This document shows, piece after piece, positions 12,001 to 15,000 of a DNA stretch of 64,000 nt. Numbering within the stretch: the stretch's first letter is position 1; every line of letters begins with the position of its first letter. Made by a program: the position numbers. Origin of the DNA: Butyrivibrio sp. XPD2006 (lineage in GTDB: Bacteria; Bacillota; Clostridia; Lachnospirales; Lachnospiraceae); the NCBI RefSeq assembly GCF_000420865.1, contig NZ_ATVT01000004.1, positions 217,718 to 281,717 of the forward strand, given 5' to 3'.

Positions 12001-15000
12001 GCAAAAAGGCATATTTTTGTGGTATTATTTCGTCGTTTTGAGGTTTAATTGTGAGGAGATTTTCATGGGAAGAGTTTTTAAAAATATACGTAAAATCGAT
12101 ACAGTGCTGTGTATAGCCTGGATTCTGGCCATTGTCTCGGCCTTCTTTGTTCATCCGTCAAAAGAGTACCTTAGCTACATAGATTTCAGGTCCCTCGGAA
12201 TCCTCTGGGGACTTATGGTCATAATTCAGGGACTTAAAGAGAACTCAGTCTTTGACAGGATTGCTGGATTTCTTTTATCAAAGGTCACAAAGAGCTGGCA
12301 GCTATCCGCTGTACTTATATTCATGTGCTTTTTCGGAAGCATGCTGATCACAAACGATGTAGCGCTCATAACCTTTGTTCCGTTCGCACTTATGATCCTT
12401 CACGGCTGCAGACGCGAAGACATGATGATCCCGACAGTTGTTCTGCAGACAGTTGCTGCTAACCTCGGAAGTATGCTTACTCCCATCGGCAATCCTCAGA
12501 ACCTTTATCTGTACGGACTGACAGGCATGAGCCTCGGCCGCTTTGTCCTGATCATGCTGCCCTTTTCCCTTGTATCTGCGGTTTTACTTGTTCTCTCCCT
12601 GCTTATCATTCCGGGTAGGGAAAAGAGCCTTAATACGAGCGAGCGTTCTTCCATCACAAGTCAGTTTGGAAGCACACGCCAGATAATCATTTATGCTGTT
12701 TTATTTGCAATAGCTCTTTTAACAGTAGTAAGGATCCTGCCCTGGTATGTATTTGCAGTTATTGTTCTGGTTATAGTGGGTGGAATGGATTACAAGATTC
12801 TCTTCCGTGCAGACTATGTGCTGCTGCTTACTTTCATCGGTTTCTTTATTTTCACGGGAAACATGGGAAACATCGAAGTAATCAGTTCCTTCCTGGAAGA
12901 AATCCTGATCGGCCGTGAGTTTGCAATATCCGTAGCCCTCAGCCAGGTGATCAGCAATGTTCCTGCAACTCTCATGCTCTCAGGCTTTACATTTAATTAT
13001 AAGTCTCTGCTCATCGGTGTTAACGTAGGTGGTCTTGGAACACTTATTGCTTCCATGGCTTCTCTTATTTCATATAAGGCATACAGCAAAGAGTATCAGG
13101 AAAAGAGCGGAAAATACCTTCTGGTCTTTACTGTTGTAAATGTAGTATTTCTGATAGCTTTGGTCCTGACATATATAATTATCAGAAATCTTTGGATCTG
13201 AAAAATTAGTTTCAGATTTTATGTTGACGAAGACTTTTAAACATGTTACAAATGTAAGTGGTAAGTTTCAGAGCACAATTTGGAGGTAGAGAGGAATGTT
13301 GAATAGGTGATATTGATTCATTAAGTAATAGCAGTAATTAACCCGTAAGGGTATTATTTGCGTTGCGCGAATCGTATCATTCTATTGCAGATCTTTTCTA
13401 ATTCCGGATAGGTGCTTTTTTTGTGCCATAGTTTGAATATCTAAATCCCGGGATAATAAGATTTTGAGATAGACAAGGTCCGTTTGCGTGATGCAGACGG
13501 ATTTTTTATTTGTATTTGACTTACTTAGGAGGACATCATGGAAAAGACATCTTCAGATGATTTATCAATAAGAAAGCCCCTGTGGACAAGGGACTTCACA
13601 ATAATAACCGTAGGCAGCGTAGTGTCGATGCTTGGAAACAGCATGGCTGGATTTGCCCTCAGCCTTATGGTGCTTGATTACACAGGTTCAACGATGCTTT
13701 ATGCAATCTACCTGATGACCTACACAGTTCCACAGCTCATAGTTCCTATCATTTCAGGCGCCATACTGGACAGGTTCTCAAGAAAAAAGATGATATACAC
13801 CCTGGACTTTATGATGGGAGGTCTGTATCTGCTACTTGGAATACTGCTCTCACACGGGTGGTTTAACTTCCCGCTTTTTGCACTGTTCAGCTTAACAGTC
13901 GGATCTGTCAGCAGCATCTACATGGTAGCTTATGACAGCTTTTATCCGCTTCTGATATCAGAGGGAAATTATTCAAAGGCATATTCCATCGCCAGCGTCC
14001 TTGAGACCTTTGCGATATTCATGGTTCCCGTGGCAACATTTTTCTATAAGCTCTTTGGTATGGGGCCACTTCTTATGATCAATGCAGTCTGCTTTTTAGT
14101 GGCTGCAACACTTGAAACGCAGATTCGTGCCGAAGAAAAATACATTGAAAAACAAAAGAAAAGTATTGAAGGCGAAGATCTTTCTAAAGTTTCTCGCGTC
14201 CTTGTGGATATCAAAGAAGGCTTCAGATATCTCTTTTCCGAAAAAGGACTTATGGCGATTGCCATTTACTTCCTGTTCAGTTCCATGGCAGGAGGCGCAT
14301 CAAATGTGATCTGCCTTCCCTACTTTAAGGGGAATTTTGAGAACGGTGAGTATCTGTTCATGCTGGTCTTTGGCATGAGCTTTGTGGGAAGAGCTCTGGG
14401 CGGCGCTTTCCACTATAAGAAAAAGCTTGATGCCGGTAATAAGTTTTATATTGCACTTTTTGTTTACATCATGATCGGAATATTTGAAGGGCTATATCTC
14501 TATACCCCTTTGCATGTTGCGATGGTACTGAGCTTCTTTGTGGGCGTAGGCGGAGTTACAAGTTATACAATAAGAATCTCCTCAACCCAGAGCTATGTTC
14601 CCGATGAGAACAAAGGAAGATTCAACGGCGCATTCCAGGTTCTCTCAACTTCAGGCTCACTTATCGCCGAACTTCTGGCCGGCGTTCTGACACTAGTTAT
14701 GGATCAGCGAGCCGTACTGCTGCTGTTTGAACTTGCCAGCGTAGTTGCTGCCATTCTGATCATCGGCGGAAACAAAGAACACGTCAAAAAGATCTACAAC
14801 AGAAATATGTAATCCTTCGAAAGGAGGCGCAGATGTCTAAAAAATTACTGATTGAAGCAGAAAATATAGAAGTAACTTACGGCGAGCAGACAGTTCTCAA
14901 CTTCGAGAGGTTCTACCTCTACGAAGGTGAGAAGGTCGGACTTGTGGGCATTAACGGTGCAGGAAAAACGACTCTGCTTAAAGTTTTGTCCGGAAGCATC

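Follow-up and report, generated by a model that had tools for sequence, protein, structure and literature searches.

A conserved leader with a very short uORF resembles ribosome-dependent transcription attenuators and precedes an MFS–ABC-F–MATE operon in rumen Butyrivibrio

An untranslated leader precedes an MFS–ABC-F–MATE operon

The 64-kb window analysed here, by which we mean the whole stretch of rumen Butyrivibrio DNA under study, contains an untranslated gap of 336 bp that precedes an operon of three genes; all features described below are on the + strand. The first gene downstream of the leader encodes an MFS transporter (13538..14812; PF07690, TIGR00900) with a Shine–Dalgarno (SD) sequence AGGAGG at 13528..13533. 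The second encodes an ARE-type ABC-F ribosomal protection protein (14833..16293; NF000355, 453 bits against a cutoff of 380) and the third a MATE efflux transporter (16286..17638), whose ORF starts before the ABC-F ORF ends. The MFS and ABC-F genes are separated by 20 nt, with no ORF and no terminator inside. The solved structures nearest to the ABC-F protein are VgaA-LC, MsrE and VgaL, and the protein scores below the cutoffs of the Msr, Vga and CplR family models (442 bits against 680 for Msr_all and 380 bits against 780 for CplR). The MFS protein is only remotely Mef-like (41.6 bits with the Mef(A) model, cutoff 675). A first-pass annotation had described these genes as a mef/msr-like pair, which holds for the gene order and fails for family membership. 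Because the ABC-F protein passes the NF000355 cutoff and the leader stands directly before an ABC-F gene at two other loci (L078 and L094), this gene probably confers resistance to ribosome-targeting drugs.

The promoter of the leader (13224-13252) consists of a -35 hexamer TTGACG (13224..13229) and an extended -10 element TGtTACAAA (13244..13252, with the hexamer TACAAA at 13247-52), from which transcription would start near 13259. It was not detected by a consensus scanner because the final base of the -10 hexamer is A. The -35 hexamer TTGAC[GTA], a 17-nt spacer ending in TG and the -10 hexamer TA[CA]A[AT]A are found in all leader lineages, with the -35/17/TGn-10 spacing in register throughout, and the promoter-like element of the first-pass annotation is thus a lineage-wide feature. 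Other small ORFs in the gap (at least 20 aa, both strands) either start within the promoter or overlap with the beginning of the MFS gene.

The leader recurs before several types of gene

Drawing on genomes and an unbiased pattern scan of metagenomes, we found leaders of the same anatomy at 24 Butyrivibrio/Lachnospiraceae loci, which fall into about 7 lineages. The carriers include a cultured strain, Butyrivibrio sp. NC2007 (L001), with MFS and ABC-F proteins that share 97% identity with those of the window. Common to all 24 are the promoter, an SD, a uORF of 3–4 codons, a long hairpin (H1) and an intrinsic terminator (T2). Where downstream sequence was available (21 loci), the first gene after the leader encodes an MFS transporter in 19 cases and an ARE ABC-F protein in 2, and the cargo takes the forms MFS-ABCF-MATE, MFS-ABCF, MFS-MATE, MFS alone and ABCF-MATE. 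At L008 the promoter and T2 remain but the uORF and H1 have been lost; this fits poorly with a tight T2, unless the gene at L008 is not expressed or T2 lets some transcription through.

An Rfam search of 12800-14000 (E<=10) returned chance-level matches only (13-21 bits against gathering thresholds of 38-50, E=1.4-9.5), and no Rfam model of a Listeria leader or sRNA matched the leader at this threshold. Searching PLSDB plasmids with the leader by blastn gave no match, and we found nothing specific in the literature on Butyrivibrio or rumen ABC-F leaders.

A uORF of three to four codons is kept in every leader

The uORF of the window, ATG TTG AAT AGG TGA (13296..13310), encodes Met-Leu-Asn-Arg (MLNR) and has an SD, GGAGG (13282..13286), 9 nt 5' of its ATG. 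Adjoining the ATG is a second purine-rich, SD-like tract, AGAGGA (13290..13295), and each lineage has such a tract directly before the ATG (AGGA, GGAG or GGG). The pattern of SD, uORF and flank occurs once in the 64-kb window. The GGAGG-led four-codon uORF had already been placed here by the first-pass annotation, and it has a counterpart of 3–4 codons in every leader (24/24), in 11 nucleotide versions that encode nine peptides: MLNR, MLIR, MLRR, MLFR, MRIR, MRNR, MRR, MTRI and MTKF.

Several features of this set suggest that the uORF is translated. The ATG (A29, T30 and G31 of the alignment) is invariant, as are G16 and G19 of the SD, and the remaining SD bases are at least 90% conserved. The sole indel is a 3-nt deletion (L003, MRR), which preserves the frame. 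Codon changes are synonymous at Leu2 (TTG, CTA, CTT, TTA), Thr2 (ACC, ACG) and Arg4 (AGG, AGA). The start and stop codons themselves lie within structurally conserved strands, so conservation of the ORF and conservation of the RNA are not fully separable.

The uORF lies within a long, conserved hairpin

The whole leader folds with -85.5 kcal/mol, compared to -55.9±4.1 kcal/mol for shuffled sequences (z=-7.2). In the MFE folds the SD, start codon and uORF are buried in H1, a hairpin of about 150 nt (13270-13418). Its 5' strand (13270..13319), which carries all three elements and was delimited from the MFE folds and an alignment of 15 leaders, would serve as an anti-antiterminator and includes segment 1, the conserved TGATATTGATTC (13308-13319). 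Segment 1 pairs with segment 2 (13363..13398), a predicted switch strand with two alternative partners, segment 1 (giving H1) and a downstream segment 3 (giving an antiterminator). The 3' strand of H1 also contains the anti-SD tracts UCUUUUCUA and UUCCGGAU (13392..13409). Among the MFE pairs, the SD GGAGG pairs with UUCC at 13402-05, and the AUG-abutting tract AGAGGA pairs with UCUUUUCUA at 13392-13400.

Consistent with a conserved structure, 79% of cells in the 15-leader alignment are paired in H1 (pairing 1:2; helix columns 3-18/111-126 and 19-29/91-102), compared to 37-45% in slid controls, and 10 pairs are changed on both sides. In L009, for example, a change of the uORF stop from TGA to TAA is compensated in H1 by TCA to TTA. 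The apical domain is the most variable part of the hairpin. An origin of H1 as a MITE-like inverted repeat was ruled out, as the element always lies between the same promoter and the same gene types.

At the base of H1, GGUGC pairs with GCAC (13273-76) and is directly followed by U7; this site in the MFE folds, T1 (13411..13422), may act as a first terminator or as a pause site, a role suggested by the fold model. It was missed by the terminator scanner because the scanner demands a loop of 3-8 nt. T1 is found in 4 of about 7 lineages; L009/L054 lack it and the L006 clade has a weak form. Both H1 and this hairpin with U7 (13411-13422) are absent from the first-pass description.

The terminator T2 competes with an alternative pairing

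T2 (13475..13511) has a core stem of 10 bp (13479-88/13492-13501) that is extendable to 14 bp, a UGA loop and a U6 tract (13502-07) followed by AUUU. Between the U6 tract and the MFS ATG (13538) lie 30 nt; these values are near enough to the 9-bp stem and 25-nt distance given in the first-pass annotation. A terminator scan returned 3 terminator-like sites where 0.9 would be expected. Every leader has T2; 93% of its cells are paired (pairing 3:4) compared to 29-49% in slid controls, and two pairs are changed on both sides (C-G<->U-A and A-U<->U-A).

Segment 3 (13458..13491) comprises the pre-terminator tract together with the T2 5' arm and loop, and would form the 3' strand of the antiterminator. 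When the uORF was masked by a ribosome footprint in a co-transcriptional fold, 13363-13398 paired with 13458-13491, covering the whole T2 5' arm and loop, and the antiterminator was predicted in every lineage under this mask. The T2 5' arm alone pairs with upstream RNA at chance level in the window (-4.2 kcal/mol stabilisation compared to -4.0±2.1 for shuffles); arm-only pairing exceeded shuffles only in L009 and L061, and not in the window, L005, L006, L064 or L078. Because this arm-only test was at chance in most leaders, we instead tested the direct duplex of segments 2 and 3 (RNAduplex) against 1000 dinucleotide shuffles. The window duplex has an energy of -21.6 kcal/mol compared to -13.6±3.1 kcal/mol for shuffles (p=0.011), and six other leaders gave p values of 0.004, 0.006, 0.010, 0.015, 0.002 and 0.005. 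Of about 7 lineages, 5 show more segment 2:3 complementarity than chance would give and a sixth, L078, is borderline (p=0.061); in the L006/L007 lineage it is at chance level (p=0.46 and 0.20, 1000 shuffles).

In the alignment, 69% of cells pair in register in the antiterminator, compared to 31-51% in slid controls. Covariation gave it no support (counted in the L061 register), with shuffles matching or beating the real alignment. One change, GAAUC to GGAUC in four lineages, weakens pairing 1:2 (U-A to U.G) and strengthens pairing 2:3 (A.C to G-C). With the ribosome mask and a complete T2, the thermodynamic optimum still contains T2, so antitermination would have to be kinetic. The fold models thus allow three mutually exclusive pairings (1:2, 2:3 and 3:4), and the alternative antiterminator fold that the first-pass annotation had envisaged is possible and exceeds shuffles in the window and in most other lineages.

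Four other pairings were dropped as not conserved: TAAGTAA (13322-28) with TTACTTA (13521-27) beside the MFS SD; the transcript 5' end with ACUUACUUA, present only in the folds of the window and L012; GCAGAUC (13387-93), which could mimic the 3' arm of T2 but is conserved only in the window clade and L078; and UCCGGAU (13403-09) with the T2 base, which forms 5 bp only.

The leader shares its architecture with characterized ABC-F leaders

The architecture of the leader matches that of two experimentally dissected ABC-F leaders, vmlR (PMC9226507) and cplR (PMC10201436), which supports the first-pass reading of the region as a ribosome-stalling attenuator. In vmlR of Bacillus subtilis, the uORF MIN lies inside an anti-antiterminator hairpin that is followed by an antiterminator and a terminator, and uORF variants bearing R or K (MDK, MRK) are functional (PMC9226507). 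The window leader follows the same logic, with a uORF-bearing hairpin as anti-antiterminator, and likewise has a U-rich element, a candidate pause site, between sensor and terminator. The vmlR leader differs in that its pause hairpin is small and separate and that SL-4 sequesters the SD; it contains one terminator only, its uORF has 3 codons, and the ABC-F gene behind it is monocistronic.

The cplR leader of Clostridioides difficile and other Clostridia has the uORF MR[I/M] and is induced by lincomycin and retapamulin; similarly short uORFs occur in the leaders of VmlR2 (MK[L/Q]) and LsaA (MAGN) (PMC10201436). Like cplR, the window leader has a Clostridia host, an ARE1-type ABC-F gene downstream, an Arg-rich uORF of 3-4 codons within a 5' hairpin, and an alternative antiterminator, predicted here, followed by a canonical hairpin with polyU (PMC10201436). 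Unlike in cplR, where the terminator stem also sequesters the SD of the main ORF (translational attenuation), the MFS SD of the window (13528-33) lies outside T2. The window leader further differs in its four codons, a much longer H1, the second hairpin+U7 site and an MFS gene in first position, and its ABC-F falls short of the CplR cutoff (380 bits against 780).

The mef(A)/msr(D) operon joins the genes of an MFS pump and an ARE ABC-F in one transcript under a ribosome-mediated transcription attenuator, the arrangement predicted here, and both leaders share the TTNTTT pause motif (PMC10314930). In msrDL a stalled ribosome directly obstructs the terminator, as we propose here for T1, and MsrD represses its own induction (PMC10314930). 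The uORFs are longer than the four codons of the window (8 codons in mefAL, MTASMRLR with the +x+ motif, and 6 in msrDL, MYLIFM), and mef(A)/msr(D) has a second attenuator between its genes (PMC10314930), whereas the MFS and ABC-F genes of the window are only 20 nt apart. Unlike that pair, the window MFS and ABC-F proteins miss the Mef and Msr family cutoffs.

The lmo0919 (VgaL) leader of Listeria monocytogenes precedes an ARE ABC-F gene and contains an anti-SD element as well as a very short uORF. It has been aligned with the cplR leaders (PMC10201436). Of the solved homologues of the window ABC-F, VgaL is one of the nearest three.

A model for control of the operon

We consider it likely that the leader acts as a ribosome-dependent transcription attenuator, with the four-codon uORF as its sensor for a blocked ribosome and the MFS-ABCF-MATE operon under its control. 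Its elements are present and conserved, alternative pairings are possible, and the genes associated with it are of resistance type. Without drug, the polymerase would transcribe from about 13259 and a ribosome loaded on GGAGG/AUG would complete the four codons and depart. Segment 1 (the uORF end plus GAUAUUGAUUC) would then pair with segment 2 (beginning GAAUCGUAUCA), while both SD-like tracts pair with the anti-SD tracts, together forming the long H1. The H1 base followed by U7 (T1, 13411-22) could already halt or pause the RNA polymerase and, with segment 2 locked in H1, T2 would fold and terminate transcription at about 13507. With drug present, a ribosome arrested on the uORF would cover roughly 13281-13320. 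Occupation of the H1 5' strand would leave T1 unable to form, and the freed segment 2 would pair with segment 3 (13458-13491, including the T2 5' arm and loop), pre-empting T2 and allowing the polymerase to read into the operon. Once induced, the ABC-F protein would presumably free the stalled ribosome and so return the switch to its off state. Very short uORFs are typical of leaders that answer lincosamide, streptogramin A or pleuromutilin class inhibitors, and drugs of these classes may be the inducers here. The MRIR and MRNR variants would also fit the macrolide +x+ motif.

The same sensor could instead regulate T1 alone by direct ribosome obstruction, for which msrDL is a precedent (PMC10314930), with T2 constitutive, leaky or stabilising and no real antiterminator. 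Such an arrangement would agree with the U7 directly after the H1 base, the chance-level pairing of the T2 5' arm by itself in the window lineage, the lack of covariation in the antiterminator, the persistence of T2 in the MFE under the ribosome mask and the retention of T2 without the sensor in L008. We nevertheless regard it as unlikely: T2 is universal, whereas three of the roughly 7 lineages (L009/L054, the L006 clade and L061) lack T1 or have only a weak form of it, an unregulated GC-rich terminator of 10-14 bp with U6 would block the operon, and segment 2:3 complementarity beats chance in five lineages and is borderline in a sixth.

Any slowed ribosome on the uORF would free segment 2, and the attenuator might therefore sense general translation capacity or the supply of Arg-tRNA (starvation, stringent response) rather than antibiotics. 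Every uORF variant contains Arg or Lys, Arg is the last codon in most, and (p)ppGpp also influences vmlR (PMC9226507). This is quite improbable, however, given that the cargo always consists of drug-export or ribosome-protection genes, that a single Arg codon would sense starvation only weakly compared to classical multi-codon leaders, and that the L006/L007 uORFs have Ile or Phe last. The large, stable and conserved structure (z=-7.2) and the location of the uORF ATG and stop in paired, conserved strands would also suit a ligand- or protein-binding, riboswitch-like RNA or an independent small RNA with its 3' end at T1 or T2, with the tiny ORF incidental, but this is very improbable in view of the absence of any matching Rfam family even at E<=10, the kept SD spacing, the frame-preserving sole indel and synonymous codon substitutions, an architecture like that of translated leaders, and the variability of H1, which is greatest in the apical domain, where one would look for a ligand pocket.

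Significance of the leader family

The best reading of the leader is as a new example of the known vmlR/cplR/lmo0919-type attenuation of transcription by ribosome stalling, not as a new mechanism, and it leaves the understanding of that mechanism unchanged. A more elaborate version of this reading, which we hold only tentatively and think rather doubtful, is that one uORF controls two serial stops, by steric block of the T1 5' strand and by a long-range antiterminator of T2, within a portable drug-sensor cassette that relies on sequence-dependent arrest. If so, rumen Lachnospiraceae would have recombined this unit before three unrelated resistance gene types (MFS, ABC-F and MATE). The M-[L/R/T]-x-R peptides and the SD-like tract abutting the AUG could then specify a sequence-dependent arrest, perhaps macrolide +x+-like (MRIR/MRNR) or at termination, in contrast to vmlR-type leaders, for which a context-free arrest at the start codon is assumed.

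On the reading as an attenuator of the known type, the leader family offers natural variants for dissecting drug sensing by very short uORFs, including nine peptides, leaders with and without T1, the sensor-deletion allele L008 and cargo swaps. The leader would also identify as inducible resistance genes an uncharacterised ARE ABC-F, MFS and MATE module carried by bacteria that are abundant in the rumen. Exposure to lincosamides, macrolides, pleuromutilins and streptogramins is routine in livestock, and surveys of resistome expression could therefore find such genes silent as long as the drug is absent.

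Gene content and signals of the leader

The 336-bp gap at 13202–13537 is bordered on its 5′ side by a CitMHS-type permease gene (11999–13201) and followed by plus-strand genes for an MFS transporter (13538–14812), an ABC-F protein (14833–16293) and a MATE transporter (16286–17638). The 20-nt MFS–ABC-F gap, together with the 8 nt (16286–16293) that the MATE ORF (listed start GTG, putative) shares with the ABC-F ORF end, suggests a tightly coupled transcript of three genes. The first-pass annotation had described a mef/msr-like pair, which holds for the MFS–ABC-F gene order but not for family membership: the MFS protein reaches 41.6 bits against 675 for the Mef model, making any Mef likeness remote, and the ABC-F protein passes the NCBI generic ribosomal-protection ABC-F model (453 bits, cutoff 380) while falling below the family cutoffs of the Vga, Msr and CplR models. 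Its closest solved relatives are VgaA-LC, MsrE and VgaL/Lmo0919.

The promoter, GGAGG-led uORF and terminator hairpin previously claimed for the gap are all found in the sequence. A −35 element (TTGACG, 13224–29) is followed by 17 nt ending in TG and a TG-extended −10 element (TACAAA, 13247–52); the Shine–Dalgarno (SD) sequence GGAGG (13282–86) stands 9 nt 5′ of the four-codon uORF ATG TTG AAT AGG TGA (MLNR, 13296–13310); and the terminator, T2 (core stem 13479–88/13492–13501, U6 at 13502–07), lies 30 nt ahead of the MFS start and was picked up by a terminator scan (3 sites observed versus 0.9 expected). An Rfam search of the leader region (E ≤ 10) matched no family, and blastn of the leader against PLSDB plasmid records found no similar DNA.

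A long hairpin buries the uORF

The whole leader folds at −85.5 kcal/mol, compared with −55.9 ± 4.1 for shuffles (z = −7.2), and it owes most of this stability to a single long, imperfect hairpin, H1 (13270–13418), that the first reading had missed. In its 5′ strand, the SD bases GGAG pair with UUCC at 13402–05, and a second purine-rich tract next to the AUG, UAGAGAGGA, pairs with UCUUUUCUA at 13392–13400; the start codon and uORF follow, and then GAUAUUGAUUC, paired with GAAUCGUAUCA at 13369–79. An SD-like purine tract adjoins the uORF start codon in all lineages (AGAGGA at 13290–13295 in the window; elsewhere AAGGAG, GAGGAG or AAGGG), too closely spaced to serve that AUG. It would lie at an SD-like distance from a P-site at codon 3 and so might hold the ribosome near the uORF end; alternatively, it may be there only as a pairing partner for the U/C-rich anti-SD tract.

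Immediately after the H1 base (GCAC 13273–76/GUGC 13412–15) comes U7 (13416–22), which gives this site, T1, the look of another terminator or pause site upstream of T2. T1 occurs in four of about seven lineages; it is missing from L009 and L054 (L numbers denote related loci in other genomes) and weak in L061 and the L006 clade. Every leader lineage has T2, which marks T2 as the probable core regulated terminator; T1 would be a lineage-specific reinforcement or pause. The U7 of T1 includes a TTNTTT motif, as discussed for vmlR (PMC9226507) and msrDL (PMC10314930), to which it may be related. We also observed a possible small hairpin at 13411–13428 (GGUGC-UUUUUUU-GUGCC, U7 in the loop), which appears in the ribosome-masked fold and is not kept in L003 or L005; it could contribute to sequestering the T1 3′ strand in the ON state.

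The leader recurs in Butyrivibrio and other Lachnospiraceae

A genome search with the MFS protein as query returned 32 loci in Butyrivibrio and other Clostridia of the rumen or gut; 11 of these carry the same leader. A second search, of metagenomes, used a pattern drawn from the leader only (GGAGGT-N7-8-ATG-N3-15-TRATATTGATTC) and took no account of what lies downstream. It gave 65 matches, including 13 true leaders; the remainder were out of frame and lacked any other leader feature. Together the scans yielded 24 leaders in about seven lineages, all 24 with the −35/17-nt/TG-extended −10 promoter in register, GGAGG plus second purine tract, H1 and T2.

Conservation of the uORF in orthologous leaders, set beforehand as a test, was borne out: it has four codons in every leader except L003 (three, by a clean 3-nt deletion), in 11 nucleotide versions encoding MLNR, MLIR, MLRR, MLFR, MRIR, MRNR, MRR, MTRI and MTKF. 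Synonymous codons (Leu2 as TTG, CTA, CTT or TTA; Thr2 as ACC or ACG; Arg4 as AGG or AGA) point to constraint on the peptide besides the RNA, a signal tempered by small numbers and by start and stop codons that lie within structurally conserved strands.

Cargo 3′ of the leader differs: MFS–ABCF–MATE in the window, L001, L004, L012 and L063; MFS–ABCF in L005, L009, L036 and L054; MFS–MATE in L002; MFS alone in L006, L007, L053 and L061; and ABCF–MATE directly after the leader in L078 and L094. The first gene is MFS or ARE ABC-F at all 21 loci with downstream sequence. Compared with 14833–17638 of the window, cargo has decayed or been reshuffled between close relatives, with MATE directly after MFS and no ABC-F in L002, and MATE reduced to a C-terminal remnant after ABC-F in L003 and L036. 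The CitMHS permease that neighbours the L005 leader is inverted with respect to it.

A predicted antiterminator as alternative to H1 and T2

We aligned three key segments of 15 leaders. H1, which joins segment 1 (the uORF end and following tract) to segment 2 (13363–13398), had 79% of cells paired, compared with 37–45% for slid partners, and ten pairs with changes on both sides; in L009, a stop-codon change from TGA to TAA is matched by TCA to TTA in the opposite strand. T2 was 93% paired (29–49% when slid), and in two of its pairs both bases had changed.

To search for an antiterminator, we folded each transcript as far as the T2 loop, a stage at which the 3′ arm has yet to be made, with a ribosome footprint covering the uORF. 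The segment of the H1 3′ strand that this releases paired in all lineages with a stretch made up of the T2 5′ arm, the T2 loop and the tract just 5′ of T2. The window version joins 13363–13398 to segment 3 (13458–13491) through UUGCGCGAA with UUUGCGUGA, CG with CG, AUC with GGU, UCUAUU with GAUAGA and an AGAUCUU tract with AAGAUUUUG. With 1,000 shuffles of segment 2 per leader, the window duplex scored −21.6 versus −13.6 ± 3.1 kcal/mol (p = 0.011); p values elsewhere were 0.004 (L012), 0.006 (L003), 0.010 (L005), 0.015 (L061), 0.002 (L009), 0.005 (L064), 0.061 (L078), 0.46 (L006) and 0.20 (L007). The 10-nt T2 5′ arm alone, against upstream sequence in the window, was not above chance (−4.2 versus −4.0 ± 2.1 for dinucleotide shuffles), exceeding shuffles in L009 and L061 only.

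In-register counts gave 69% paired cells for the antiterminator, compared with 31–51% for slid controls, and no covariation. In four lineages, GAAUC to GGAUC turns an H1 U–A into U·G and an antiterminator A·C into G–C, moving the balance toward the ON fold. The leader pairings exist, are conserved and exclude one another, and the antiterminator fold proposed earlier is predicted in every lineage. With complete T2 present, the thermodynamic optimum retains T2, so the antiterminator would need to win kinetically, as in other attenuators.

A model for drug-dependent attenuation

From these pairings we infer uORF translation, its arrest, the drug and a part for T1. Without drug, the ribosome would translate the uORF and vacate it, allowing H1 to close as an anti-antiterminator, and transcription would stop at T1, then T2. 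With drug, a ribosome that stalls on the uORF, covering about 13281–13320, would withhold the H1 5′ strand; T1 could not form, and segment 2 would pair with segment 3, pre-empting T2 and allowing transcription of the operon. So short a uORF points to inducers that stop peptide-bond formation at an early stage (lincosamides, streptogramin A, pleuromutilins); MRIR and MRNR also fit the macrolide +x+ motif, and MLNR does not.

The comparative data support the ribosome-stalling attenuation proposed in the first-pass annotation, corrected as to gene families, H1 and the second U-tract site, T1. The architecture is that shown by experiment for the ARE-ABCF genes vmlR and cplR. In vmlR, an anti-antiterminator hairpin holds the uORF MIN, and a pause element, an antiterminator and a terminator come after it (PMC9226507); the uORFs encode MR[I/M] in cplR of Clostridia, MK[L/Q] in VmlR2 and MAGN in LsaA (PMC10201436). 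The window leader differs from these in its four codons with terminal Arg preferred, its much longer sequestering hairpin, its two hairpin–U sites in series, a terminator that, unlike that of cplR, does not sequester the SD, MFS as first gene, and proteins below the Mef, Msr, Vga and CplR cutoffs. The mef(A)/msr(D) operon also places MFS and ABC-F genes behind ribosome-mediated attenuators, and at msrDL the stalled ribosome directly obstructs the terminator (PMC10314930); in the window, the 20-nt gap leaves no second attenuator between the two genes.

Three relatives diverge. About 130 nt 5′ of the MFS start, L008 (Butyrivibrio MAG SIG341) carries a natural deletion allele: the promoter and adjoining ATAGTGG are joined almost straight to T2 and MFS, without SD, uORF or H1. 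Deleting the uORF hairpin abolishes vmlR expression (PMC9226507), and by analogy with that ΔSL-1 mutant L008 should be silent and not respond to inducers, provided that T2 does not leak. L014 (Butyrivibrio sp. LC3010), which escaped the leader pattern scan, has a similar layout in diverged sequence within the 420 nt 5′ of its MFS homologue: GGGAGAGACA-ATG AGC ATT TGA (MSI), then TAATTTGATTT, with GCGTATTTTTTGTG internally and GAGTCTATTTTTGTGTACACAAGAATAGACTTTTTTT as a different terminator. In L011 (Lachnospiraceae MAG SIG336), the MFS homologue follows a leader of another kind, in which an eight-codon ORF, ATG TCT TTA AGC AAA CTC CTT GCG TAG (MSLSKLLA), overlaps the terminator 5′ arm (AAACTCCTTGCGTAGAAATACGCGGGGAGTTTTTT), suggesting an independently evolved attenuator before the same transporter family.

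The mechanism is already known for ARE-ABCF genes, and this leader would add another case, well supported by comparative data. Its main value is the annotation, in rumen Lachnospiraceae, of a putative module of inducible resistance genes; the leader family also offers natural variants for work on very short sensor uORFs.
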